Shown piece by piece: positions 6,516-30,182 of a stretch of 33,324 bases of DNA (position 1 is its first letter; every line of letters starts with the position of its first letter). The notes below the pieces were generated by a model that ran no database searches, was not told the origin of the DNA, and saw only the letters and a list, made by a program, of their open reading frames with translations. The position numbers and the translations under genes are program-made. Origin of the DNA: a virus (lineage: Duplodnaviria; Heunggongvirae; Uroviricota; Caudoviricetes); the IMG/VR virus record IMGVR_UViG_2711768068_000019. One strand, written 5' to 3'.

Positions 6516-7034
6516 TCACAGGCCGATATTGCGGCGGTGTTGCTCCAGCCGGTCGACGCCGTTCACCTTCTCAATCATGTTGATGGTGTCGATTTCGACC
6601 AGCTCCTTACCGTCCATCGTCAGCCGGAAATAGGTGCAGACCACGGAGATTTTCGACTCGGTGTCTTCTCCCTGTTTGCCCTCGCCGGTGTCGATTTCTT
6701 TCTGACGTCCACGCATGACCACCTCGACGGCCACCGTTTCGCCGGTATCGTCGCGCTGGTAAGAGCCTGCAAAACGAATCGGTACGGCATCCACACCGGT
6801 TGCGGCGTAAAGCTCCCAGATAACCGAATCCGGGAAGCCACCGAGCGACCACTCCATTGACAGCGCATCGTCATCAAGGCCGAGGTCTACCGGTGCGCTG
6901 CCGTTCATCCCCGCACCGCGATAGTTTTCGAGCTTACGGGTCAGTTTTGGCAGCGTGACGGACTTTGCGACGCCCTGATAGCTGTAGCCGTTCAGAAAGA
7001 CGTTCATTAACTTGAGTTTGCGCGGCATTGCCAT
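6516..7034 (-). CDS. FII: Tail tube protein FII
   Basis: 172-aa ORF, ATG start, recognised as P2 gpFII; synteny FI-FII-E. Confidence 0.9.
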   Translation of the reverse strand: MAMPRKLKLMNVFLNGYSYQGVAKSVTLPKLTRKLENYRGAGMNGSAPVDLGLDDDALSMEWSLGGFPDSVIWELYAATGVDAVPIRFAGSYQRDDTGETVAVEVVMRGRQKEIDTGEGKQGEDTESKISVVCTYFRLTMDGKELVEIDTINMIEKVNGVDRLEQHRRNIGL

Positions 7035-7046
7035 CGGTCAGGCTCC

Positions 7047-8237
7047 TTAATTGCTGTTAACCGAGGTGACCAGATTTGCCAGGTATTTATCGGTAATACG
7101 CTGGCGCAGGGTCAGATTTTCAAGAGGAGGCACCGGTGTATAGTCGTAGTCGATATACAGTTTTCCGGCCTTGAGGGTTTCCGCATCGTTGGATTCTTCG
7201 CTGAACCAGCAGGTCGCATCCACGATATAGCCGTTTGTTTTCAGCTCTCGGAATTTGGCATTGATGCCGTCAACGATGTCGCGAATCAGCGTTGCGGTGA
7301 TGGGCTTGTCCACCGCCCACATGTGCGCCTCAGCCATCGTATCGGCCAGCACCTGCGCGGTGCGGGTGTAGTTTTCAAAGAGGAACAGCGGGTCATCAGA
7401 GCAGGTACGGTTACCCCAGAAGCGGAAACCGTCGCGGCGAATCAGCGTTGTGACGCCTGACTCGTTAAGCAGGTCAGCATCAGTACCGGACTCCTGCAAA
7501 TCCCAGAATACAGAGGCGCTGATGCCGGTAACACCGTTCACCCCGACATTGGACAGCGTTTTATGCCAGCCCTGCTCCTGGTCGATTTTAGCGCGCAGCC
7601 CCAGCGCACGGGCGGTGGCATACGCGGTGGCGGTGGTACTGGTGACCGTATCCCATGCGAGGAAATCCGGCCAGATGACCATCAGCTCACGCTGGCTGAA
7701 ATTCTGACGGTAGGCTTTCACCTCGGAAATGGTTTTACAGCCCCATGCGCTGATATACCCGAAAGCGCGCAGCTTCTGACAGACGGATGCCAGTGCAACA
7801 GCCACCTCTTTGGTATCCAGTCCCGGCACACCGAGAATACGCGGTTTAACACCGGTTACCGACTCCGCCGCCAGCAGGGCTTTTAGTCCGGTGTACTGAC
7901 CGTTTTCGTCGGTGGTGCCGATGATATTGGAAACGGTCTGCGCGAGTTTCGTTTCCTCATTGTCGCCGGTGCCGTCTTCCACGCGCACGACAACGGTGAC
8001 CGGTTTTGACTGGTCAGCGATGGCCTGCAACGATGCCGCCAGCGTGCCTTTTTTACCGGCCTTTGCAATTGCGCTCTGCACATTGGTAATCAGCACCGGT
8101 TTATTGAGGGGGAAGGTTTCCGCATCTGCATCGCTGGCCGTGCAGACCATGCCGACAATGGCCGTGGATACGGTGGAAATGACGCGGGTGCCGTCGTTAA
8201 TCTCCAGCACCTGCACGCCGTGATGATAGTCACTCAT
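7047..8237 (-). CDS. FI: Contractile tail sheath protein FI
   Basis: 396-aa ORF, ATG start, recognised as P2 gpFI. Confidence 0.9.
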   Translation of the reverse strand: MSDYHHGVQVLEINDGTRVISTVSTAIVGMVCTASDADAETFPLNKPVLITNVQSAIAKAGKKGTLAASLQAIADQSKPVTVVVRVEDGTGDNEETKLAQTVSNIIGTTDENGQYTGLKALLAAESVTGVKPRILGVPGLDTKEVAVALASVCQKLRAFGYISAWGCKTISEVKAYRQNFSQRELMVIWPDFLAWDTVTSTTATAYATARALGLRAKIDQEQGWHKTLSNVGVNGVTGISASVFWDLQESGTDADLLNESGVTTLIRRDGFRFWGNRTCSDDPLFLFENYTRTAQVLADTMAEAHMWAVDKPITATLIRDIVDGINAKFRELKTNGYIVDATCWFSEESNDAETLKAGKLYIDYDYTPVPPLENLTLRQRITDKYLANLVTSVNSN

Positions 8238-8328
8238 CCGTTTAACTCCGTGGTTAATGGGTGCAACTATTTTCTGTTGTGCAGAGCATGAGACGCTATT
8301 TGACCTGGCTGGTCAGTGGATGAAACAA

Positions 8329-8359
8329 CAGATAAAGAAAATGCGGGCAATTCGCCCGC
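8329..8359 (-). terminator. Candidate rho-independent terminator downstream of the Z/fun-position gene
   Basis: Minus strand reads GCGGGC-GAATT-GCCCGC followed by ATTTTCTTTAT. It lies about 200 nt below the stop of the 8567..9160 gene and upstream of FI. Confidence 0.4.
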
Positions 8360-8566
8360 CTGTCCTGATTTGTACACACTCATTTTCCGACTGACAGTTT
8401 ACATAGCCCAAAAGTTATCAAATCTGACAGTCTGCTTTGAGCAAGAAGCGGACATTTGCCTGTCAGGGTATATGCCGCTCTGCGGTTATTATCCAGAATC
8501 AATAATTCATCTGAGCTGGATTACATATAAAACATAGTTACCCCATGAATAACCATTAGCAGATTA

Positions 8567-9160
8567 TCAATTATGTAAATCTTTTGTTTTATGTTCTTTA
8601 GCGTGTTGTGATAATAAATAGCTATAGCGTTTAAGCAAAATATTAGAAAGATTAAGCTCATTCATGAAGTGTTCTTCTAATAAGTAACCATCAATATCAA
8701 CTTTAATATCATTACCACTTTTCATCTTCTGTAACGTAGATTTTACACGCTCCAGCAGGATGCTTTGCTCATGGTAATAGTCCATAAGAAGAGTAACATC
8801 CTCTTTATCAAGCTTACTTAATTCGCCGAAGTAGGATTTAAACACTTTATCAGTCTGGTTTAATGCAATCTGTAAGCGAGGTCCCCCTAATGATTTGACA
8901 TTAATGGCAAAAGGCTCGCCAACAAAATGCTCCGAATTTTCGTCAAAGCCAATATGTCTCGTTTTATCAAGAAAAGTGAGAGCGCGATGGTTATTAGCGA
9001 TTTCATATGCAAACATTGTTCTGATACTGTCTCTCTCAGCCTCCATGTTTATATCATCACGATGATTTGTATAAAATATATTTCCAACAAAGAGAACCAT
9101 AGCAAGAATCACTGAACTTGCCTCCCAGTTAATATTTTTTAATCGTCGCTTAGTAAACAT
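8567..9160 (-). CDS. Hypothetical membrane-anchored protein, AT-rich moron at the P2 Z/fun position
   Basis: 197-aa ORF with ATG start and a strong Shine-Dalgarno (AAGGTG, 4-nt spacer). One N-terminal hydrophobic helix (SSVILAMVLFVGNIFYT) followed by a soluble domain. Markedly lower GC than the flanking G and FI genes. No family recognised. Confidence 0.65.
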   Translation of the reverse strand: MFTKRRLKNINWEASSVILAMVLFVGNIFYTNHRDDINMEAERDSIRTMFAYEIANNHRALTFLDKTRHIGFDENSEHFVGEPFAINVKSLGGPRLQIALNQTDKVFKSYFGELSKLDKEDVTLLMDYYHEQSILLERVKSTLQKMKSGNDIKVDIDGYLLEEHFMNELNLSNILLKRYSYLLSQHAKEHKTKDLHN

Positions 9161-9381
9161 ACCGCACCTTAATTATCAAAAATATTCCTTCAGTGTTATC
9201 TGGTTAGCCTAAACCAAGTCATTAAAGTCCGCAGGATATCATATACATAAAATGTATTGATTAGAATTTGCACTAATAAAATAATGCTTTACTAAAATCT
9301 ACTCCAGACACAGAGCGGCCTGTCAGATTAGGCTTTACTCTGTGCCATAGATATGTAATCTCACACCAGAGCTTATACAAC

Positions 9382-9909
9382 TTATTGCGGCATTTCCGGC
9401 CATTCAGGATTTGCAGGATCCACACGGCTGATCAGAACGCTGTAGCGTTCCCATGACTCCAGTCGTGCGCATTCCTCATCCGTCGCCATATTCAGCCTGA
9501 CAGCGCGTTCCAGTGGCTGAATAACGCTTTCCGCTTCGGAAAGTAACGCGGCCTTTTGTGATTCTGCCTGTTGTTGCTGTTCATCTGCCGTATAAATCCG
9601 TTTAACCACAGCACCATCCTTAAACATCCATTTACCTGAGTCGTCAGCACGTCGGTTGGAGGTAATATCAGGAACCTCAACAACGCTAAAACCTTCAGGA
9701 TTAAGCGTTGAAGCATCTCTGGTGATAGCGACAATAATATTATTTTCATCGTAAACAATCTTTATTGTGTCTGACTGAAAGTTCTTCACTTCCTCATACC
9801 AGTTTTTCCCGTCTTCAGTGTAAAGCCAGATGACTCCATGCTTCTTTGTTAACTCATACTGTTCCAGTGTTTTAGCGTTACCCGCTTTTATGTTCTTTAA
9901 GTGCATCAT
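9382..9909 (-). CDS. G: Tail fiber assembly protein G
   Basis: 175-aa ORF immediately downstream of the tail fiber gene H; recognised as a P2 gpG-type tail fiber assembly protein. Confidence 0.85.
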
Positions 9910-9910
9910 A

Positions 9911-12166
9911 TTAAACGCTCGCTACATTATACCATGTGCCATTTATATACTTTTGAACGGGTCTGTAATAAACACCCGCAATATTATCGGCGGAGTTGGA
10001 ACCTGTATCCTGAACATTTATACCAGACAATACATGACCTGAAGGGCACTGGAAGTTCCATGTTTGCCAGTTGTTCACACCATAATATTGCTGTGAGCCA
10101 AGCCGAACATCTTTCACATATCTGGAATCAATGTTACCCCAGCTGCTTGGTTGTATCTGACCGTTTACAGCAAATGTCACCGAGTTATCTGTATTTCGCT
10201 GACTATAGAAATGCCAGCCTGAATCATCACCAAGCTCTGCAACAGTTGGTCTTGACGAATTTCCCCACAAGTTAAATGATGCATTATGGGCAGCGGTATT
10301 TGCACTTGAAAGTGTGAATAACTTACTTTCCCCAGCTTGAATACCCTTTAATGATATTGCTGAGCCATTTCTAAAGCGGAATACATGCACACCATTAGCA
10401 TAAGCATCCAGCACCCCATCACCATTTTGTTTAAACCCAGTATCGTTATCTCCTAAAACTATTGAATTCCCCCCCAGGGCATTAGCCGTTCCAATCCCCA
10501 GATTTCCGCTAAAAATGGCATTAATACCGAATATTGAGTGAGAACAATAAAACCCTCGCCCATTGTTAAAATCCAGAATGGCTTGTGCTTTCGTGCTTTC
10601 TGTCGCGGGATTAGTTGCTCCCCACTTATATGTTGTTTGACCGACGGTATAATCCTGAGTTGGAACAATAACCGTTAGCCCTTCTTCGGCAAAAACTCGC
10701 ACAGGAAAAGCCCTGCCTTCAACGTAAAAAACGCTGCATACATCATCTTCTTTCAGGCTTGTTACAATGGAATGGATTGCGCGCTCATTAGTCTGATATG
10801 TCGAAAAATAACCTGCTGCATATGAACCACGATCAGTCCAACCTCCGGGCATTACCATTCCATTAAATTCGCAGTTATTCATTGCGTAATCACCACCGGC
10901 AGATGTGGTTGTAATAACCACTCTGGAAGCCAGTTCGCCAGTGCTACCAGTGGAACGCCGGAAAATAACTGGATACCACTTTCCACCAACAGCATTAGAC
11001 GGCGCGTTAAATACGTACTGCCGCATTCCTTTTTTCTTATCCACCTCGCCTTTGCTGTAAACATTAATGTTACTCAGGAAGCGATCTTTATCAGGAATAT
11101 CCGCGCCGTTCTGATTTTTCTGCAATGCGCCAGAAGCCTGATTTACCGTTTCCTGCAAACCGAGATATTCGATAACGGCGGCAACGGTCGATTTAGCCAG
11201 AATATCCCGCCCGACTTTTGTCAGGGTTGCCAGGCTGGCAACATCATTCCCCGTAAAATACGGAAACCTGTCTGCCGCAGTAGCAAGCCCCGCCAGCGCC
11301 GTCAGGGTAGCATCTTTCGGTTGCTTACCCGCAAGCGCGTTAGTCATGGTGGTCGCAAAATTCGGGTCGTTGCCCAGCGCCGCCGCCAGCTCGTTCAGCG
11401 TGTTCAGTGCGTCAGGTGACGAATCTACAAGTGCGGCAATCGCGGCCATAACGAAAGCCGTGCTTGCGATTTGGGTATTATTCGTTCCCTGTCGTGCAGT
11501 TGGTGTTGTTGGCGTTCCGGTCAGTGCCGGGCTGTTTAATGGCGCTTTCTTGTTCGTTTCATCCATTACCGTCTTAACGGCTTTTGGCGTTGCGGCCAGC
11601 ATTTCAGACGTGCTGTTGGTCGCACTGCTTAACTGAGTAAAACCTTTTGCGGTCAGCGAGGCGTCCGGGTGACGTCGTGACTGTTCGTGCTCTGCAATTT
11701 TGTCATCAACGTAATCCTGCGTCGCCATCACCGTTGTGGTGTCAATGGTCAGCTCCACTGAGGCCACACTGCTGACGATGATGACCATGCGGCAGGTCTG
11801 CGAACGCCCTGAACCTTCGGCAAGAGCTGGCTTATAACTTTCGGCCATGTTCGCCACGGCAATTAACGTTCCCGCATCATCGTACAGGCCAAGCTCACGC
11901 ATCCAGAAACCGCCCACCTCCGGCGGAATAACCAGCTCTGCGATAATATAATTACTGTTTCGTTTGTCCTGACTGATTTTGTTCAGCGCATGTCGCCAGA
12001 CTTCGTGGATAAGCCCGGTCTGTCCGGCATCCGGGACAGGCAATTTACCACCGCCATCCCCGACGGCCATCGTGGTAATGTTGACCTTCCGCCCTCCCGG
12101 TGCGGTTGCCGCTGCCAGCTTTGCTGCACCGGCAGTGGTGATAACGGTTTTGAATTTTGTGCTCAT
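9911..12166 (-). CDS. H: Tail fiber protein H (mosaic; C-terminal receptor-binding region differs in composition)
   Basis: 751-aa ORF; the N-terminal part is recognised as P2 gpH. The C-terminal roughly 40% (about 9911..10900) is lower in GC and rich in Gly/Asn/Ser/Trp/Tyr. It is longer than the roughly 669 aa I recall for P2 H. Confidence 0.85.
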
Positions 12167-21032: not shown

Positions 21033-22805
21033 ATGACCATCACCACAGACACCACTCTTTTACACGACCCGCGTCGTCAGGCGGCGCTGCTGTACTGGCA
21101 GGGGTTTTCCGTGCCGCAGATTGCCGCCATGTTGCAGATGAAACGCCCGACGGTGCAGAGCTGGAAACAGCGCGACGGCTGGGACAGCGTTGCCCCCATC
21201 AGCCGTGTCGAAATGAGTCTGGAAGCGCGGCTGACCCAGCTCATCATCAAACCGCAGAAAACCGGCGGTGACTTCAAGGAAATTGACCTTCTGGGACGCC
21301 AGATTGAACGACTGGCACGGGTAAACCGTTACAGTCAGACCGGCAACGAGGCAGACCTTAATCCGAACGTCGCTAACCGCAACAAAGGCGGGCGTCGCAA
21401 ACCGAAAAAGAATTTTTTCAGTGACGAGGCCATCGAAAAGCTGGAGCAGATTTTCTTTGAGCAGTCTTTCGACTATCAGTTGCACTGGTATCGCGCCGGG
21501 CTTGAGCACCGCATCCGCGATATCCTGAAATCCCGCCAGATTGGCGCGACGTTTTATTTTTCCCGCGAGGCGCTGCTGCGCGCCCTGAAAACCGGTCATA
21601 ACCAGATTTTTCTGTCGGCCAGTAAAACGCAGGCGTATGTGTTCCGCGAATACATCATCGCCTTTGCCCGGCTGGTTGACGTTGACCTGACCGGTGACCC
21701 GATTGTCCTGGGCAATAACGGCGCAAAACTGATTTTTCTCGGCACCAACTCCAACACCGCGCAGAGCCATAACGGCGACCTGTACGTCGACGAGATTTTC
21801 TGGATCCCGAATTTTCAGGTACTGCGTAAGGTGGCATCAGGTATGGCCTCACAGAGTCACCTGCGCTCGACCTATTTCTCCACCCCGTCCACGCTGGCGC
21901 ACGACGCCTACCCGTTCTGGTCGGGTGAACTGTTCAACCGGGGACGCGCCAGCGCCGCCGAACGCGTGGAAATCGATGTCAGTCATAACGCCCTTGCCGG
22001 TGGGCTTCTCTGTGCGGACGGCCAGTGGCGGCAGATTGTCACCATTGAGGACGCCCTGAAAGGTGGCTGCACGCTGTTCGACATTGAGCAGCTTAAACGC
22101 GAAAACAGCGCCGACGATTTTAAAAACCTGTTCATGTGTGAATTTGTTGACGACAAGGCGTCGGTGTTCCCGTTCGAGGAGCTGCAACGCTGCATGGTCG
22201 ACACGCTGGAAGAATGGGAAGACTATGCACCCTTTGCCGCAAATCCGTTCGGTTCCCGCCCGGTATGGATTGGTTACGACCCGTCACACCGTGGCGACAG
22301 CGCCGGATGCGTGGTGCTGGCACCGCCGGTGGTGGCCGGTGGCAAATTCAGAATACTTGAGCGTCACCAGTGGAAAGGCATGGACTTTGCCACTCAGGCT
22401 GAATCCATCCGCAAACTCACCGAAAAATATAACGTCGAATACATCGGTATTGATGCCACCGGCCTCGGTGTCGGCGTGTTCCAGCTCGTGCGCTCGTTCT
22501 ATCCCGCCGCGCGCGATATCCGCTACACGCCGGAAATGAAAACTGCAATGGTGCTCAAGGCAAAAGACGTTATCCGCCGTGGCTGTCTGGAATATGACGT
22601 CAGCGCCACCGATATCACCAGCTCGTTCATGGCTATCCGCAAGACCATGACCAGCAGCGGACGCAGCGCCACCTATGAGGCCAGCCGCAGCGAGGAAGCC
22701 AGCCACGCCGACCTCGCCTGGGCGACCATGCACGCCCTGTTAAATGAGCCACTCACCGCCGGTATCAGCACTCCGCTGACATCCACCATTCTGGAGTTTT
22801 ACTGA
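21033..22805 (+). CDS. P: Terminase ATPase (large) subunit P
   Basis: 590-aa product from the ATG at 21033 (MTITTDTTLLHDPRRQAALLYWQGF...), preceded by an AGG Shine-Dalgarno-like motif; the track ORF begins 10 codons upstream at a TTG. Confidence 0.9.
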   Translation: MTITTDTTLLHDPRRQAALLYWQGFSVPQIAAMLQMKRPTVQSWKQRDGWDSVAPISRVEMSLEARLTQLIIKPQKTGGDFKEIDLLGRQIERLARVNRYSQTGNEADLNPNVANRNKGGRRKPKKNFFSDEAIEKLEQIFFEQSFDYQLHWYRAGLEHRIRDILKSRQIGATFYFSREALLRALKTGHNQIFLSASKTQAYVFREYIIAFARLVDVDLTGDPIVLGNNGAKLIFLGTNSNTAQSHNGDLYVDEIFWIPNFQVLRKVASGMASQSHLRSTYFSTPSTLAHDAYPFWSGELFNRGRASAAERVEIDVSHNALAGGLLCADGQWRQIVTIEDALKGGCTLFDIEQLKRENSADDFKNLFMCEFVDDKASVFPFEELQRCMVDTLEEWEDYAPFAANPFGSRPVWIGYDPSHRGDSAGCVVLAPPVVAGGKFRILERHQWKGMDFATQAESIRKLTEKYNVEYIGIDATGLGVGVFQLVRSFYPAARDIRYTPEMKTAMVLKAKDVIRRGCLEYDVSATDITSSFMAIRKTMTSSGRSATYEASRSEEASHADLAWATMHALLNEPLTAGISTPLTSTILEFY

Positions 22806-23839
22806 TGAGCAAGAAAAAAGGGAAAACACCGCAACCTGCGGCAAAAAAAATGACTGCCAGCGCCCCGAAAATGGAGGCATTCACCTTTGGTGAGCCGGTG
22901 CCGGTGCTCGACCGCCGTGACATTCTGGATTACGTCGAATGCATCAGTAACGGCAGATGGTATGAGCCGCCGGTCAGCTTTACCGGTCTGGCAAAAAGCC
23001 TGCGTGCTGCCGTGCATCACAGCTCACCGATTTACGTCAAACGTAATATTCTGGCCTCGACATTTATCCCGCATCCATGGCTTTCCCAGCAGGATTTCAG
23101 CCGCTTTGTGCTGGATTTTCTGGTATTTGGTAATGCATTTCTGGAAAAGCGTTACAGCACCACCGGTAAGGTCATCAGACTGGAAACCTCACCGGCAAAA
23201 TATACCCGCCGTGGTGTGGAAGAGGATATTTACTGGTGGGTGCCGTCCTTCAACGAGCCGACAGCCTTCGCGCCCGGCTCCGTGTTTCACCTGCTGGAGC
23301 CGGATATTAATCAGGAGCTGTACGGCCTGCCGGAATATCTCAGCGCCCTTAACTCTGCCTGGCTGAATGAGTCGGCCACGCTGTTCCGCCGCAAGTATTA
23401 CGAAAATGGCGCACATGCCGGATACATCATGTACGTCACCGATGCCGTGCAGGATCGCAACGATATCGAAATGCTCCGCGAAAACATGGTTAAGTCGAAA
23501 GGCCGCAACAACTTTAAAAATCTGTTTCTCTATGCCCCACAGGGGAAAGCCGACGGCATTAAAATTATCCCCCTCAGTGAAGTGGCGACGAAGGACGATT
23601 TTTTTAATATCAAAAAAGCCAGCGCCGCTGACCTGCTGGACGCGCACCGCATCCCCTTTCAGTTGATGGGCGGCAAGCCGGAGAACGTCGGGTCGCTGGG
23701 TGATATAGAGAAAGTGGCAAAGGTCTTTGTCCGCAATGAGCTTATCCCGTTACAGGACAGGATCCGCGAGATAAACGGCTGGCTCGGTCAGGAGGTCATC
23801 CGCTTTAAAAACTACTCACTGGACACTGACAACGGCTGA
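22805..23839 (+). CDS. Q: Portal protein Q
   Basis: 344-aa ORF whose ATG overlaps the P stop (ATGA); recognised as P2 gpQ. Confidence 0.9.
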   Translation: MSKKKGKTPQPAAKKMTASAPKMEAFTFGEPVPVLDRRDILDYVECISNGRWYEPPVSFTGLAKSLRAAVHHSSPIYVKRNILASTFIPHPWLSQQDFSRFVLDFLVFGNAFLEKRYSTTGKVIRLETSPAKYTRRGVEEDIYWWVPSFNEPTAFAPGSVFHLLEPDINQELYGLPEYLSALNSAWLNESATLFRRKYYENGAHAGYIMYVTDAVQDRNDIEMLRENMVKSKGRNNFKNLFLYAPQGKADGIKIIPLSEVATKDDFFNIKKASAADLLDAHRIPFQLMGGKPENVGSLGDIEKVAKVFVRNELIPLQDRIREINGWLGQEVIRFKNYSLDTDNG

Positions 23840-24168: not shown

Positions 24169-24708
24169 TCAATCATCATGATGAGAGAACCTAGCATTTA
24201 CTATTCTTGAGTGAAGATTGTTTGCAAATGATAAGTTGCTTAAAATAACACTAAACACACACTTTATTTGTAACCAGCACATAAAATAAACAAAGGTGAT
24301 TCCAATCATTCTAATAAGATCAGAATACACCACTGAACTCGATAGCACAGAGCCTATTGATTTAAACAGATAAACAAACAAAATCGAAAGCATTACTACT
24401 GCTGAAGTAATTACAACGTAAATTAGCTTTTCAATTCGAGGTGCATCTTTCGTATTCTTTATGTAATCAACATCATCATTGACAATGCTTGCAATTGCAT
24501 TCGGATATAAAAAACCAATCCATAATCCAACTATGGTAAAAATTGCAGCAGATATGTTTTGCAAAACACCCAGTATATCTTTTATATCACTATAGTTAAC
24601 ATAAGCTTTCAGCCAATAGGAGGCCACAGCAATTAGAAATAGAATTAACAAATTCCATTTCCATTGTATTATCAATGCCTTTAAATCCTTACTTGTTTGA
24701 GGTGACAT
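24169..24708 (-). CDS. Hypothetical small integral membrane protein (4 predicted transmembrane helices), second gene of an AT-rich cargo operon
   Basis: 179-aa ORF. Its ATG directly follows the upstream TAA (TAAATG) and is preceded by GGAGG within the upstream gene's 3' end. Four hydrophobic stretches of about 17-23 residues. About 30% GC by eye. Confidence 0.7.
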   Translation of the reverse strand: MSPQTSKDLKALIIQWKWNLLILFLIAVASYWLKAYVNYSDIKDILGVLQNISAAIFTIVGLWIGFLYPNAIASIVNDDVDYIKNTKDAPRIEKLIYVVITSAVVMLSILFVYLFKSIGSVLSSSVVYSDLIRMIGITFVYFMCWLQIKCVFSVILSNLSFANNLHSRIVNARFSHHDD

Positions 24709-25836
24709 TTATGCCTCCGCCGTTTTTAAAGATTTTTCTTCCACCTCTTCATTATAAAGGATTGTTTGGAGTAAATCATCACGAACAGCCTTTATTTCAT
24801 GAAGGAGTTTTTCTGGAGAGAAATGCTCATCTCCGGTAGAATCGCTGACAATTAATGCAGTTCTCGCCATATATTTTTTTAACCATAATGGGCGAGATGA
24901 ATCTTTAAGAACAAAGCCAACATCAACCCAGTCAACATCATCTACATTTCTATCCAATAGTTGTTTTATCTCCTCTTCCGAAGGAGCACCATCTACTCGA
25001 ACCTCAATTTTTTTAGGTTTTGTAAACTTGGTTTGTTCTGTTCCCAAGAAATCCGATAGTACATTACTCACCAGACGTAATAACGGTTGCCGGGTATCCT
25101 CAACTTTTGCGACCGTAGTATCACGAATAATTGTCTGAACAATTTTATCTCGTACATCAAGAATATTCGTCCCTGGTTTATTAACCTTCGTCACTTCAGC
25201 CTTAAATTTAAAAACGCAATTACACTTGCGTCCATTTTCATCTACATGCTTGAAAATTGTTTTAGAAATAAGAATGTCATCTTCCGAACATGAAGAACGA
25301 GCTCTAGTAAATGAGGTAGTATCCTTTTCCCTACCAAAATCACCGTGATTTACTACAAAATTAAAAATATAATTGCTTAACCTCGGTGTATCTGCACCTG
25401 AATGAGGAAATATAATGGATGCAATCTTGTTATATTCAGGAATTATCCAATAATAACATGGCTCAACCCAAATATAGTCTTTTCCATTCGTTTCTGTCTT
25501 TACTGTATCATTTTCTGTAGCACCAACAGGTGCGTTTTTTTTAACAGCGTGCAAACGTCCCTTCGCGGAACCTAATGCGCGATACATTACCATCACCCGA
25601 TCTTTTGTATCGGGATCGACAGCCACTCCTCGTGAGTAAGTTCTGGCTCTTAGCGGATGAGTTCCCGTATCCCACGGAATTGACTCCTCAACGCTTTTGT
25701 CATCAAGCCAAGCCTGCAACGCGTCAAAGATCTCATCAAGTGTTCCGAATTTATGCTCTAATTCTTCTGCGTTTTTCTTCAGTCTGTAAAAACCACAAGC
25801 CTTGATATCAAAGAACGTAACGATTCCAGTTTCCAT
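24709..25836 (-). CDS. Hypothetical protein (375 aa), first gene of an AT-rich cargo operon at the P2 tin/old position
   Basis: ORF with the ATG at 25834-25836 (METGIVTFFDIKACGFYRLKK...); the track ORF begins 21 codons upstream at a TTG. No transmembrane segment and no Walker A motif. Low GC. No family recognised. Confidence 0.7.
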   Translation of the reverse strand: METGIVTFFDIKACGFYRLKKNAEELEHKFGTLDEIFDALQAWLDDKSVEESIPWDTGTHPLRARTYSRGVAVDPDTKDRVMVMYRALGSAKGRLHAVKKNAPVGATENDTVKTETNGKDYIWVEPCYYWIIPEYNKIASIIFPHSGADTPRLSNYIFNFVVNHGDFGREKDTTSFTRARSSCSEDDILISKTIFKHVDENGRKCNCVFKFKAEVTKVNKPGTNILDVRDKIVQTIIRDTTVAKVEDTRQPLLRLVSNVLSDFLGTEQTKFTKPKKIEVRVDGAPSEEEIKQLLDRNVDDVDWVDVGFVLKDSSRPLWLKKYMARTALIVSDSTGDEHFSPEKLLHEIKAVRDDLLQTILYNEEVEEKSLKTAEA

Positions 25837-25993
25837 CACTTTCCCTACGAAGCGGTAAAAAATCCCCAGAACAATAAGGGATCTATGCAAAAGGTTCAAT
25901 GCTCAAGATTATCACCTAGTATGCTAACGCCTCCGCAGATGAGTTGTTCACCCCGCCAACCCTGAAAACAAGTTTCACGACTGGCGGCGCTCT

Positions 25994-26200
25994 CTATCGT
26001 CTGCGTGGTGGTGGCGCAACTCTGGACTGACCGATATAGTTAAACCGCCCGTAATTATCCCGGACTATTTCGGCACACCCGACTAGCTCATCGGGCGTCA
26101 GATTTTCGTTGACCATAATCTGCTGTAGACGGTGAACAATGGCCATCAGCTTGATATTTTTAGTTTTATGGTGCGGTATCTCGCCTGGTATTCTGTGCAT
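25994..26200 (-). CDS. Hypothetical small protein (about 68 aa)
   Basis: ATG at 26198-26200 overlaps the stop of the upstream gene by one base (TAATG), suggesting translational coupling; the track ORF begins at a GTG 4 codons upstream. No homolog recognised. Confidence 0.35.
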   Translation of the reverse strand: MHRIPGEIPHHKTKNIKLMAIVHRLQQIMVNENLTPDELVGCAEIVRDNYGRFNYIGQSRVAPPPRRR

Positions 26201-26655
26201 TATCCAAGCCACCCATTTTGCTTTGCACGCTCCACCTGTTCATCTGAATAGTTCCATGCTCCATCCGTGGCAACCATTGCCCCGCCAGACATCCCCGTCT
26301 CTGGTTCATACATAACAGCAAGGCCGAGCTGATGCATAATTTCATGATTAATTCTGAATACCAGACCACGCTCACTAAGTTCTTTCCAGTTCACAATCTC
26401 ATATGCGCCTGTATTAAGCAGCTCAATACTTAGCAAGACATAATCTACCAGCCAGTCTGACAGGTCAGTAACATCTGTTATCCGGGCTTCAACCTTTCGC
26501 CCCGTGTACACACCCTGCACCCATTCATGCAAAATCAACGTGTCCCCGCGCTCATAATTACGGTCATTTTTCCGAAACTCTGCGCGTTTCTTTCCTTCCA
26601 GCACAAGGTCGAAATATTTTGCGTGCAGCTTTACCTCGTGAATTTTTGCCATCAT
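26200..26655 (-). CDS. ASCH/PUA-like (DUF3850-like) domain protein with a C-terminal extension containing an HExxH motif
   Basis: 151-aa product from the ATG overlapping the A stop (ATGA), preceded by GGAG. The N-terminus (MAKIHEVKLHAKYFDLVLEGKKRAEFRKNDRNYERGDTLILHEW...) resembles ASCH/DUF3850 proteins as I recall them. The C-terminal region contains HEIMH. Confidence 0.7.
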   Translation of the reverse strand: MMAKIHEVKLHAKYFDLVLEGKKRAEFRKNDRNYERGDTLILHEWVQGVYTGRKVEARITDVTDLSDWLVDYVLLSIELLNTGAYEIVNWKELSERGLVFRINHEIMHQLGLAVMYEPETGMSGGAMVATDGAWNYSDEQVERAKQNGWLG

Positions 26656-28937
26656 GTCCACTCCATTACTGTTGAGAATCCCGGCCACTCATCAGCGACC
26701 GGATACGTGAACTTTTTCCCGTCATAATTTACGGTTGCCCCACGCGCCAGCGCCTCAAGCTCCCATCGCTGCGGCCTGATACCGTTCTGAGCAAGGTCAA
26801 CGCGGATACGGGTAATTTGCATTCGTTCCGACCGGGTCATTCTGGCCGATGGCGCTATTTCATGCGGTTTTAACGGGCTTCCGTTTCTTTGCTGACGACT
26901 TGGCGTTCTCCGACCGTGTTTTAATGCACCTCTGAGCGCCCTCACGACCTCCGGGTCACTCCATTCGATAACACCGTCATCAACCAGATTAAGCACTGCT
27001 GCGGCGTGCTCAGAAGGTGTGGGAGCCGGTAACGAAGTATCACCGCCGGTAAGCTTTCCACAGTTATTGACAGGACTCCGAGGCGCGGCGATGCCGCTTT
27101 TTAAAGTCAAAGGCTCAACGACCGGAACTTTCGGCACAATGCGCCAGTCCGTGGTTCTGGTGATATGAATATGACGCGCGCCGAGATGCGGTGCGTAAAT
27201 GCCGACCACTCTCTCGACTTCTTCCTCGTACTCGTTAACGTCATCCGACGGGCTACGGGCGACTCTGACAGTCTGACAATCGCGCGGAACATTTGCCCCA
27301 CCCTGCGCGCTGATATACAACGCAAAATCACCACTGTCTGCGGCGGCGCGTGCAGCCTCGACGCGCTCGTCAAACTCATCAGCAATGCTGACGCCGCGAG
27401 GCAATTTGCGTAATTCACGGTAAGCCCCCATTGTCGGCAGACCAACCGTTTTAAATTGCGGAATGCGCCACGTTGACGCCCATGCGGTAACAGCCGCTGC
27501 AGTGTCTTTCAGCGGCCTGCCGGTGTCGTTATCGAGCTGACCATCCAGTGCATAGCCGTCGATGTTTTTTGAAATGTATTTCGCGATATATCCCGCAGCA
27601 CCGCCCCGGTTAAGGTGTTTTGCCTGAAAACGGTTTCGCGCGGCTCCTCTTTCGTCACCATCCTCTTTGAGCGCATAGCGACGCATGATTTCGATAATCT
27701 GGTTACGCTGGCGTGGATTACAAAAAAGCATCATATGCCAGTGCGGCGTTCCGTCGTGGTGTGGCTCGACGACTCGCAAACCGTAGACCTGTAAATCATT
27801 ATCCTTGAATGCCGTGCGCATCAGGCTCCAGATACGGCAGAGATAACGCTGCGCATCCTTTGGATTAAATGCCTCATCGTTCCAGCCGTGATTAAGCTGC
27901 ACGGTTTTACTTTCGCCTTTTCCGACCTGACGTGTCGGGTGATACTTTGACGGCGCGGTCAGCGTGATAAACATCCCCACATCACCCTCTGCAGCGGCGT
28001 AACGCTCAATACCGGCAATGGTGTTCATCAGCTCCATCCGGCGAATTTCAGGATTAGAAATACTGCCCATCACCTTACTGATAAGGTCGATGCGCTCGCC
28101 GGTTTCCCTGTTTTCGAGGTCACACGATTTAAGAAATTCCAGATTTGCCTGGCGGCGCGCACGCACATCACGAATGGCGTGTTTACTGGCATAAGGAGAA
28201 CGGTCTTTATTGACCTCCCCGACAGCTATCAGTAACGCCTCATGCCAGCGCATACGCTGTCCTTTAAGCTGATGAGTCCACCACTCATCGTTAAACAGGC
28301 GGGCAATGGCAGAATATGCCTGCCTCGTGGTCATCTGTCCTTTACGGTATTTTTTCCAGTAGAGAGGGGAAATATTGAAAGCACGTGCAGCGCCAGCAAC
28401 ATGACCATAGAGGTGAGCCTGCGCCTTATCCGTAAACAGCGATTCTTTTTCGCCATGCGCATCCACCCAGGCATCGCAGAGTTCCTCATACATCATGAAA
28501 AGCTGCGATGAGATACGGGCGGCAAACTTTTTCAGCTCCTTGTCATTCATTCCAGGCAGGCGCGCATAGTGGTCACGCTCTGCCAGAAACAGCAACGACG
28601 CGTCGGTGTTCATTTCATGGCGCTGATTCACACGCTCAATACGCGGCCATAAACGACGCTGAAAAGTGGATGTGAGGAAATAAAACCCGTGTACCGGACT
28701 TTTATTGCGCCGGATGTAGTCATAGCGTGAAGTAAACAGCGAGCGCAAAAAGTAAGGCAGGCGGTTAATCGTGGATAAAACACCTTGCACCTGACGCATC
28801 TCGTCACGTGTAAGAGGTCTTTCTCGCCCAACGGCCTCGCGTGGCGCGTTCCATGCATAAGCACCGGTAAACGTCTCACCGGTGCCTGCGGCAAATGCTG
28901 ACGGAGGGACAAAACGCCCGGAGGCTTTAACGGCCAT
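26652..28937 (-). CDS. A: Replication initiation protein A (rolling-circle HUH endonuclease)
   Basis: 761-aa product from the ATG at 28935-28937 (MAVKASGRFVPPSAF...); the track ORF begins at a TTG 14 codons upstream. Contains a HUH-type motif (PHWHMMLF) and a candidate catalytic Tyr region (YIAKYISKN). Confidence 0.9.
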   Translation of the reverse strand: MAVKASGRFVPPSAFAAGTGETFTGAYAWNAPREAVGRERPLTRDEMRQVQGVLSTINRLPYFLRSLFTSRYDYIRRNKSPVHGFYFLTSTFQRRLWPRIERVNQRHEMNTDASLLFLAERDHYARLPGMNDKELKKFAARISSQLFMMYEELCDAWVDAHGEKESLFTDKAQAHLYGHVAGAARAFNISPLYWKKYRKGQMTTRQAYSAIARLFNDEWWTHQLKGQRMRWHEALLIAVGEVNKDRSPYASKHAIRDVRARRQANLEFLKSCDLENRETGERIDLISKVMGSISNPEIRRMELMNTIAGIERYAAAEGDVGMFITLTAPSKYHPTRQVGKGESKTVQLNHGWNDEAFNPKDAQRYLCRIWSLMRTAFKDNDLQVYGLRVVEPHHDGTPHWHMMLFCNPRQRNQIIEIMRRYALKEDGDERGAARNRFQAKHLNRGGAAGYIAKYISKNIDGYALDGQLDNDTGRPLKDTAAAVTAWASTWRIPQFKTVGLPTMGAYRELRKLPRGVSIADEFDERVEAARAAADSGDFALYISAQGGANVPRDCQTVRVARSPSDDVNEYEEEVERVVGIYAPHLGARHIHITRTTDWRIVPKVPVVEPLTLKSGIAAPRSPVNNCGKLTGGDTSLPAPTPSEHAAAVLNLVDDGVIEWSDPEVVRALRGALKHGRRTPSRQQRNGSPLKPHEIAPSARMTRSERMQITRIRVDLAQNGIRPQRWELEALARGATVNYDGKKFTYPVADEWPGFSTVMEWT

Positions 28938-29202: not shown

Positions 29203-29423
29203 GCCGTTCTCCGGTAATGTTTGTTTTTTGCTTCAAAGACTGACTGACAGGAAACACAACGCGTGGCTGACGGGTAAGCCGCACGACGGGCAGCAGGTAT
29301 TGGCGCGTCACACTCTTCGCAAACCAGCGCAGAAGCACCGCAATGTTTTACTCTTGCCGCGTTAATCTGGCGCTCCAGTAATTCAGCCTGTTGTTCCTGA
29401 ATAAAATCCACGTTGTCCGGCAT
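29199..29423 (-). CDS. TraR/DksA-type C4 zinc-finger protein (P2 orf83-like)
   Basis: 74-aa ORF with CxxC...CxxC (CEECDAPIP...CVSCQ) near the C-terminus; its position upstream of A matches P2 orf83. Confidence 0.7.
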   Translation of the reverse strand: MPDNVDFIQEQQAELLERQINAARVKHCGASALVCEECDAPIPAARRAAYPSATRCVSCQSVFEAKNKHYRRTA

Positions 29424-29713
29424 TACCAGCTCCTTTTGTCGTTCAGTTTCTTAAATTCATCAGCGCAATAGCTGGCGATTTCTGTCGTTAATTTTGTCAG
29501 TTCATCCACGGATGAAATTTGCTTATGAAATACAGCGCGTTTAACAAGTAAATTAACCACATCAGACAGGAGATTTAATTTATCCGCATAAATGGCTATA
29601 GTTGATTCCACCATATCCCCAGTGTTTTTATCGCGTTTAATATCAGCTAGCGACAAATCACCATTTTTCATGACTGAAATCTTCAGCCAGTTATTAAGCA
29701 ATATATTTTTCAT
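29423..29713 (-). CDS. Hypothetical protein (P2 orf82 position), AT-rich
   Basis: 96-aa ATG-start ORF, tightly packed with its neighbours; lower GC than the flanking ORFs. Confidence 0.55.
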   Translation of the reverse strand: MKNILLNNWLKISVMKNGDLSLADIKRDKNTGDMVESTIAIYADKLNLLSDVVNLLVKRAVFHKQISSVDELTKLTTEIASYCADEFKKLNDKRSW

Positions 29714-29955
29714 TCGCTATATGCCCTCTCCGCAGAATCAATCATTTCCCGGCCATTATCGGTAATACAGAAACCTTCTCTTGATTTGGTCACAAGCCCC
29801 CATTTCCCCATTGCTATAAATGCTTTTTCCACACGACTAGGACAGGAGCGGAAGACATCGCTTGAAGGATGTAGTGGAGTCTTGTCATCTAATTTTTTAA
29901 GTAATGAAAGTTGATAATCTGTTAAGCGTTTCCTGAACCATTTTGTATTTGTCAT
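29710..29955 (-). CDS. Hypothetical protein (P2 orf81 position)
   Basis: 81-aa product from the ATG at 29953-29955; the track ORF begins at a TTG two codons upstream. Confidence 0.55.
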   Translation of the reverse strand: MTNTKWFRKRLTDYQLSLLKKLDDKTPLHPSSDVFRSCPSRVEKAFIAMGKWGLVTKSREGFCITDNGREMIDSAERAYSE

Positions 29956-29969
29956 CTCCAACTTTCCTG

Positions 29970-30182
29970 TTATTTATTGAGTCCTAGATTATGGAATTTG
30001 GCAGACTCCTGACTGAGCAACTCGACTATCTCCACGCGGGATAACTCCGCCTTTGTGATGTGGCGAATCATGGCATCAAGATGAGACGAAAAGCGCGTTG
30101 CTACATCGGCCTGTGCTTCGGTTCTGGCCTGTTGCAGCATTAATGCGTATTTACCGCACTGATTTTCAGAAACTGTATGCAT
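29970..30182 (-). CDS. Hypothetical protein (P2 orf80 position)
   Basis: 70-aa product from the ATG at 30180-30182, preceded by GGAG with a 7-nt spacer; the track ORF begins at a TTG 11 codons upstream. Confidence 0.55.

Follow-up and report, generated by a model that had tools for sequence, protein, structure and literature searches.

The virus record IMGVR_UViG_2711768068_000019 is a stretch of 33,324 nucleotides, which we refer to as the window, and it is a P2-like (Peduovirus) prophage whose late genes lie on the minus strand in the list of open reading frames (ORFs). Between the tail fiber assembly gene G and the tail sheath gene FI of this prophage, the segment 8458-9308 is a single-gene cargo cassette of the G-FI (Z/fun) swap hotspot, apparently exchanged at short palindromic borders. 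Its product of 197 amino acids is predicted to have a short basic cytoplasmic N-terminus, one signal-anchor helix, and a periplasmic bundle, and, from context and architecture, we tentatively favor the reading that it protects the carrier cell at the envelope, in the manner of superinfection exclusion. The site was already known as a hotspot for cargo and defense genes with inverted-repeat borders; the protein is an uncharacterized cargo family there. Coordinates of all features are collected in Table 1.

The gap between G and FI is 1144 bp long (8238-9381) and has one convincing ORF inside it, on the minus strand. RefSeq annotation of identical DNA agrees on H, G, FI, and FII, and the coding sequence (CDS) of the cargo protein is annotated identically in E. 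coli RM11911. Homologues of the protein are full length at 53-93% identity, with none truncated, and the ratio of nonsynonymous to synonymous substitution (dN/dS) of the gene is 0.08-0.36, as measured across 34-98% identity. The gene is under purifying selection. Because of these full-length homologues and dN/dS values, we regard the ORF as a real gene and not a chance one. Across 8400-9400, the guanine-cytosine (GC) content drops to 0.28-0.40, compared with 0.53-0.61 on the FI side; by segment, it is 0.342 for the cargo, 0.343 for the ORF, 0.563 for FI, and 0.451 for G. The gene lies between G and FI, with borders common to P2-like phages bearing other cargo, as expected for cargo of this hotspot, and the composition of the segment (0.34 versus 0.56), together with the alternative cargo that relatives hold at the site, is that of a moron. 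An Rfam scan of 8000-9600 gave chance-level matches only.

A first-pass annotation, made from the sequence alone, had described an AT-rich island at the Z/fun position with a single convincing gene behind a strong ribosome-binding site. That description has held up: the ORF, the drop in GC, the homologues, and the dN/dS values agree, the Shine-Dalgarno sequence is in place (Table 1), and the gene is located between G and FI exactly as fun(Z) is in P2, with identical breakpoints. Other statements stood in part. The size given for the island, about 1.1 kb, fits the gap, but only 851 bp are foreign and both ends are backbone. The compositional contrast with the flanking genes, described as sharp, is sharp towards FI but milder towards G, and the terminator-like hairpin placed downstream of the gene is real but belongs to the conserved backbone and not to the moron. 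The candidate role in defense or lysogenic conversion found no backing in PADLOC, Pfam, or NCBIfam, where nothing matched.

The extent of the cassette was evident from P2-like phages bearing other cargo, in which the segment is missing. Their cargo at the G-FI site includes fun(Z) in P2, orf44 in Wphi, an ORF in P2_2H4, and a 'putative lysogenic protein' in P2-EC58, and among P2-like phages the unrelated cargo is found in either orientation. Homology with these four phages stops at identical breakpoints in 4/4 cases (8452/8453 and 9308/9309 in the window, corresponding to 17433 and 15346 in P2). At 8238-8457 and 9309-9381, the flanks share 92-94% identity with Wphi, P2_2H4, and P2-EC58 and 85-93% with P2 (85% for the FI-side flank alone), and P2 DNA aligns to these flanks only and not to the cargo. 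By alignment, then, both ends of the G-FI gap are conserved P2 backbone.

The same cassette adjoins G/H alleles that are only 73-74% identical, while the closest G/H alleles are without it. Since it is found beside such different alleles, the cassette is not tied to tail fiber type, and therefore it is not a structural accessory. For the same reason, and because the nearest alleles lack the cassette, we rejected a link to tail fiber specificity of the kind seen with a Llp/Cor-like block of the phage's own receptor. The divergent G/H neighbors and the homologues in unrelated mobile elements indicate that the segment is foreign and horizontally exchanged, so horizontal acquisition, which the first-pass annotation had proposed from composition, is well supported by these comparisons. 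The neighboring stretch 9600-11100, comprising the N-terminal part of G and the C-terminus of H, is itself mosaic with a GC content of 0.40-0.45. Its top DNA matches are a P2-like isolate (93%), P2 (92%), and Shigella phage SfMu (90%), with further matches of 86-89% to the tail fiber regions of D108 and P1; this is a known tail fiber swapping module adjoining the hotspot.

The cargo segment is present in 203 of 5426 complete E. coli genomes, always on the chromosome and at 96.6-100% identity, and 201 of the 203 copies span at least 80% of the cassette. Conserved G-FI flanks were found in 1017 E. coli genomes, so about a fifth of such loci hold this cargo. Thirteen sequenced Peduovirus genomes carry the cassette, including P2_AC1, which has a 94% identical copy. 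Beyond these, a word-indexed search of 5.8 billion proteins returned 38 relatives, all in Enterobacterales, an exhaustive profile hidden Markov model search of 1.84 billion representatives returned 27, all with the same architecture, and a search for related loci among genome contigs returned one locus. The hosts are human-, animal-, and plant-associated Enterobacterales.

Every relative travels alone as cargo of a mobile element, and no cognate toxin gene is consistently adjacent. In two P4-like satellites (L010 and L041), the homologue directly follows the primase gene, and in a distant P2-like virus (L042) it is in the old/tin hotspot, adjoining the portal gene and a KAP NTPase gene. A Salmonella lambdoid prophage has a homologue at its end, beside a DNA methylase and DUF4928 pair, and a Dickeya island has one beside SIR2 plus DUF87/HerA and ArdC. 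In a Pectobacterium siphoprophage, the homologue is on the opposite strand between Dit and a putative tape measure gene (726 amino acids, no Pfam match, assigned by position). Other homologues are in the transfer (tra) and leading regions of integrative and conjugative elements (ICEs) and plasmids, where the tra copy is on the opposite strand near an IS110 element, on an IncFII plasmid, and in AlpA- and CP4-type islands, the CP4-like one after CbtA/CbeA. One homologue is about 4 kb from an Rhs toxin-immunity locus.

In L042 (6172-8585), the homologue is 32% identical and directly follows the gene for a 593-amino-acid KAP-family P-loop NTPase. This could be a two-gene arrangement, of which we have seen one instance. 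A single-gene KAP NTPase system, 'Reve', is described as antiviral in a 2026 preprint, and the new P4/P2 systems of that preprint are proteins other than the 197-amino-acid cargo.

The FI-side border of the cassette is marked by a 24-nt palindrome. Its general pattern, GTCYGYT-N10-AGCRGAC, occurs once in the window (8430-8453), and within the 542 kb of loci that we fetched it is confined to cassette borders; from the degeneracy of the pattern, we estimate that ~0.2 chance matches would be expected in the scanned DNA. The other occurrences are in a Pantoea island (L005, 5785-5808), an Enterobacter IncFII plasmid (L011, 6606-6629), a CP4-like island (L053, 7689-7712), and the loci L003 (223-246 and 1874-1897) and L050 (12400-12423). 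A second, related palindrome is at 9297-9320 on the G side, and backbone homology ends in its loop. There are two loop types, TGTGCCA upstream and CGCTCAA downstream, and one stem pair covaries, being C-G in L005 and L053 and T-A in L011.

The Pantoea island and the Enterobacter plasmid match the window from 22 nt before the ATG through the palindrome (to 8424), the Pantoea island additionally matches the upstream block 9201-9268, and the CP4-like island likewise retains the downstream palindrome. P2-like phages with other cargo have matching DNA from FI up to the opposite edge of this palindrome. As the sole sequence common to the non-P2 copies and the P2-like phages with other cargo, the palindrome at 8430-8453 is the apparent crossover site. 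At the inner ends of both flanks, there is also an inverted repeat (8421-8439 and 9311-9329), and its arms coincide with the 'left/right inverted repeats' annotated in the P2-EC58 GenBank record AJ512683. The palindrome overlaps the arm at 8421-8439 and the 'right inverted repeat' of that record. On the other side, the strong hairpin directly after the G stop codon holds the arm at 9311-9329 and the 5' half (9311-9320) of the upstream palindrome, and P2 backbone homology ends at 9309.

An IS110-family transposase (DEDD_Tnp_IS110/Transposase_20) is located near the gene in three loci: L050 (5640-6662), L052 (6101-6724), and L049 (9117-10355). In two of these contexts, both very divergent, it immediately precedes the gene, and in the third it lies 1.5 kb downstream. 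Elements of the IS110/IS1111 group often target hairpin-like sites.

The only family match of the protein is PHROG 3829, of unknown function, which it matches over its full length (E = 2.8e-135). There was no match in Pfam, NCBIfam, or PADLOC at E <= 1, the 22 family members gave singleton noise only against the same three databases, and a sequence-profile search of the PDB found no relative. RefSeq names WP_042964150.1 a 'hypothetical protein' and its close relatives 'lysogenic conversion protein', a name for which the sources we reached offer no functional evidence. The literature searched has no mention of WP_042964150, WP_088550475, phrog_3829, or FIG00644420. Across the family, R47, N57, and L117 are invariant and A51, E53, I54, and Y129 nearly so, and part of these conserved residues are carried by the motif N-I-R-T-M-F-A-Y-E-I-x-x-N directly past the transmembrane (TM) helix. 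A HEPN-type Rx4-6H motif was considered and rejected because it is missing from the conserved alignment columns.

A hydropathy scan found only one hydrophobic segment, at about residues 12-31, which bears out the single N-terminal anchor of the first-pass annotation. Its statement that the soluble domain could not be assigned also stands after the searches above and after Foldseek on the predicted fold (E >= 0.2). The N-terminal flank of the segment is net positive in all full-length members of the family alignment (1-8 K+R; 21/22, the exception being the N-terminally truncated P0062), while the flank on the C-terminal side is neutral or acidic. Cys is absent from the protein, which therefore lacks a lipobox, and no cleavage motif of the AXA type is present; in some distant members, a CxxxxC pair is found close to the C-terminus. 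Given the charge bias, the single TM segment, and the lack of a cleavage motif and lipobox, an uncleaved signal anchor is predicted, which by the positive-inside rule would make the product a bitopic inner membrane protein, N-in/C-out. The prediction leaves about 11 residues in the cytoplasm and puts an up-down helical bundle of ~165 residues in the periplasm. In the AlphaFold2 (AF2) model, with a predicted local distance difference test score of 78.6, one helix spans residues 12-66, so that the TM helix runs on into the first helix of the bundle. The best natural structural neighbors are the periplasmic four-helix sensor domains of chemoreceptors (Tsr, Tar, MCP2201), but the scores are generic, matched or exceeded by those of de novo four-helix bundles.

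Based on these features, the favored reading is that the periplasmic domain would impede delivery of an incoming phage genome, or another attack that crosses the envelope, at the outer face of the inner membrane, and protection of the superinfection-exclusion type would benefit any mobile element that carries the gene. We favor exclusion because the hotspot has given Fun and three validated defense systems, because copies of the gene turn up in each of the two P2 hotspots, in satellites, and next to genes of restriction-modification, SIR2-HerA, and anti-restriction, and because nearly all of the protein is predicted to lie in the periplasm. The three validated systems from the G-FI locus are those of Vassallo 2022, who described it as a second defense-enriched P2 hotspot (PMC9519451), and the iLund4u preprint likewise treats the locus as a defense-enriched hotspot (10.1101/2024.10.15.618418). 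A wider proposal, possible but in our judgment rather doubtful, is that these genes form a new periplasm-facing, single-gene family of entry exclusion or defense, confined thus far to Enterobacterales mobile genetic elements. Its members would move among P2-like phages, P4-like satellites, prophages, ICEs, plasmids, and islands within the GTCYGYT-N10-AGCRGAC borders, possibly through a site-specific recombinase or an enzyme of the IS110 type that acts on the hairpins there.

P2 Fun(Z) (NP_046777.1), annotated as blocking T5, is like the cargo in its G-FI insertion site, its backbone breakpoints, and its nature as an AT-rich, non-essential single gene, but it has 528 amino acids, is encoded on the other strand, and shows no sequence relationship. 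Homology to it was rejected (hhalign probability 0.1%, E = 0.58), and therefore none of its phenotypes, whether the block to T5 or the sensitivity to FUdR, can be transferred by homology. Wphi orf44, the cargo of P2-EC58 and P2_2H4, NeaT, and the three PD systems share with our cassette the hotspot, the flanks, the inverted-repeat or palindrome borders, the low GC content, and a content of one to a few genes. Their proteins differ from the 197-amino-acid protein, and the validated PD systems are in PADLOC, where none matched.

Membrane-bound superinfection-exclusion proteins are familiar from other phages, for example T4 Imm and Sp and lactococcal Sie2009. P22 SieA and HK97 gp15 are small prophage-encoded inner membrane moron products that block DNA entry from the periplasmic or membrane side, and HK97 gp15 is encoded inside a tail gene module, a placement shared by this family in P2-like phages and the Pectobacterium prophage. 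However, gp15 has only 62 amino acids, and homology to it was rejected (hhalign probability 0.4%). For SieA, three TM helices together with a cytoplasmic motif are described (PMC10883804), in contrast to the one TM helix and large periplasmic bundle predicted here, a comparison made by architecture and not by alignment. The likeness to membrane exclusion proteins is only in general architecture and genomic setting.

Several observations weigh against the exclusion reading. None of the 5027 models of PADLOC-DB 2.0.0 matches the window protein at E <= 1, whereas the other hotspot of the window, which serves as a positive control, matches PDC-M18A/B. No Pfam family of superinfection exclusion, such as Imm_superinfect or SieB, or of immunity or abortive infection matches, and Foldseek gives no significant structural match (E >= 0.2) for what is a generic helical bundle. 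The same hotspot has carried non-defense cargo, the acyltransferase NeaT (PMC3573123). A lysogen of P2_AC1 was protected only against lambda and LF82_P8, and its cloned TIR system reproduced both effects; in the panel of eight phages, there was no detectable extra protection against T4, P1, T7, 186, CLB_P2, or AL505_P2 (PMC9122126). Neither the promoter scan nor the upstream alignment found a conserved sigma-70 promoter for the gene, the conserved block consisting of a T-rich stretch, GATAAT, and the Shine-Dalgarno sequence only. Finally, the gene runs in the direction of the late operon and no canonical terminator separates the two, which weakens the case for expression in the lysogenic state.

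Signals for expression within the cassette are few. The block TTTTGATAATTAAGGnG at the Shine-Dalgarno sequence is kept in L005, L011, and L052, and in these three loci as in the window a -10-like GATAAT (9172-9177, minus strand) adjoins it. The promoter scan gave 3 sites versus 3.8 expected from shuffles, and the sole site upstream of the gene abuts the Shine-Dalgarno sequence, so a transcript from it would be nearly leaderless; conservation of its -35 in relatives was looked for in the upstream alignment and not found. Between the G stop codon and the cargo ATG, we found no canonical intrinsic terminator, only the hairpin at 9304-9350 without an adjacent U-tract. With the gene on the same strand as H, G, and FI (P2 fun(Z) is on the opposite strand) and no canonical terminator before its ATG, late read-through from the V operon is plausible. 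In other elements, homologues are placed on the opposite strand inside other operons, which makes a promoter of its own likely for the gene family in general.

The first good terminator downstream of the gene is the hairpin at 8343-8359, 208 nt beyond the stop codon. Alignment to P2 places the pF activator site at about 8305-8331 and the pF transcription start at about 8261-8263, both within 8238-8457. Because the terminator is in this conserved backbone just upstream of pF, it is a phage feature and not specific to the cassette. A 45-amino-acid ORF (8257-8394, plus strand), named 'FIG00643520 hypothetical protein' in the PhiR44_1 record, is inside the same promoter and terminator backbone and is probably spurious.

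We weighed five other explanations for the gene. A membrane effector of abortive infection would sense infection, oligomerize in or perturb the inner membrane, and kill or arrest the cell before phage release. We consider this unlikely, since the ~11 residues predicted to be cytoplasmic leave no obvious sensor for intracellular phage cues, and the one TM helix, of moderate hydrophobicity, comes with no likeness to the TM effectors in PADLOC.

The anchored domain might instead bind an effector from a source other than phage, giving immunity to a bacteriocin that acts in the periplasm or to a contact-dependent toxin, or exclusion of conjugative DNA. The colicin M immunity protein is anchored at its N-terminus and binds the incoming effector, and the predicted type II topology and periplasmic domain would suit such a protein, as would the copies in ICE and plasmid transfer and leading regions and the one near the Rhs locus. 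Yet the gene is always alone, with no cognate toxin consistently next to it, it matches no Pfam immunity or entry exclusion family, and the tra-region copy, on the opposite strand near IS110, resembles cargo and not the element's own exclusion gene. We give this explanation little credence.

A similarly small chance attaches to lysogenic conversion of host physiology or virulence, for example by a sensor domain without a signaling module that titrates a ligand or partner. The chemoreceptor sensor domains that are the best natural fold neighbors also have their first TM helix continuous with helix 1, NeaT is a precedent for non-defense cargo at the locus that affects in vivo fitness in CFT073, and the carriers of the gene include Enterobacterales associated with humans, animals, and plants. 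The fold likeness is non-specific, however, with designed bundles equal or better, the cargo protein has no second TM helix, HAMP, or signaling domain, unlike Tar, Tsr, and MCP2201, and there is no match to Pfam 4HB_MCP/TarH. The enrichment beside defense and anti-defense genes favors a role in conflict instead.

We think it very improbable that the gene is a lytic-cycle accessory that read-through from the late V operon would express, whether like an i-spanin or antiholin or as a late factor protecting the infected cell or progeny. Its strand, the absence of a canonical terminator before the ATG, and the first good one downstream at 8343-8359 would fit, and i-spanins (Rz/LysB-like) and T4 RI share the type II topology, with a periplasmic helical domain in the i-spanins; for the cargo this likeness is one of prediction only. 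But homologues are found in satellites, plasmids, ICEs, and islands without lysis or tail genes, the siphoprophage homologue is on the opposite strand inside a tail module, and unrelated cargo occurs at the site in either orientation in other P2-like phages. The AF2 model is a compact bundle and not an extended coiled coil. A spanin was also rejected because the gene neither contains nor adjoins an ORF for an o-spanin lipobox protein (ORF 8887..9012, embedded on the same strand, has no Cys), the gene is between tail genes, and there is no Pfam Rz-type match. Least credible of all is a selfish or neutral passenger kept solely by recombination at its borders, for although unrelated elements show the palindromic borders again and three contexts have an adjacent IS110-family transposase, the gene is under strong purifying selection with R47, N57, and L117 invariant, and nearly all E. 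coli copies (201/203) are at least 80% complete.

Elsewhere in the window, a second AT-rich island (24169-25899, minus strand, GC 0.37-0.39) adjoins the portal gene Q (22805..23839), which is the old/tin hotspot of P2. Its two co-directional ORFs, of 396 and 179 amino acids, match the PADLOC candidate PDC-M18 (A, E = 4e-38; B, E = 3e-16) and have no Pfam domain. Beside this hotspot, an ORF for 162 amino acids (26200-26688, minus strand) has DUF3850/ASCH and DUF7415 domains. A third low-GC stretch (29400-30000, GC 0.38) is near the regulatory end of the prophage.

Table 1. Features of the G-FI region of the window, with the evidence for each.
Feature	Position	Strand	Evidence
Tube gene FII	6516..7034	-	ORF list
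Tail sheath gene FI, downstream neighbor, same strand	7047..8237	-	ORF list; RefSeq annotation
Conserved P2 backbone between cargo and FI	8238..8457	-	alignment to annotated P2
Terminator-like hairpin GCGGGCGAATTGCCCGC with T-run (to about 8334)	8359..8343	-	terminator scan; RNA fold z = -3.2
24-nt palindrome GTCCGCT-N10-AGCAGAC, FI-side border	8430..8453	.	alignments; pattern scan
Cargo-specific segment, 851 bp, GC 0.34	8458..9308	.	BLAST vs Wphi, P2_2H4, P2-EC58, P2
CDS of 197-amino-acid cargo protein, ATG start	8567..9160	-	WP_042964150.1; PHROG 3829
Codons of single TM helix (predicted, about residues 12-30), conserved motif NWEAxSV(I/V)LAM	9071..9127	-	hydropathy, flank charges, alignments A1 and A2
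Shine-Dalgarno sequence AAGGTG, 4 nt before ATG	9165..9170	-	sequence
Sole sigma-70-like match upstream: ATAACA, 16 nt, GATAAT (doubtful)	9172..9199	-	promoter scan
Strong hairpin directly after G stop codon	9304..9350	-	RNA fold -22.6 kcal/mol, z = -3.8
Tail fiber assembly gene G, upstream neighbor, same strand	9382..9909	-	ORF list; RefSeq annotation of identical DNA
Tail fiber gene H	9911..12166	-	ORF list

With ~1/27 complete E. coli genomes carrying the cassette and relatives on at least eight kinds of mobile element, this is an orphan protein that is common and widely mobile, and for which no domain or structural relative was found. Should it prove to have no phage phenotype, the gene would be an ordinary uncharacterized moron. 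Still, the G-FI locus is a proven source of single-gene anti-phage systems, and the cassette borders are a clean natural example of cargo swapping at a hotspot. The predicted periplasmic orientation points to a mechanism at the level of the envelope, and envelope-level exclusion proteins are far less explored than cytoplasmic defense and are relevant to host range in phage therapy.

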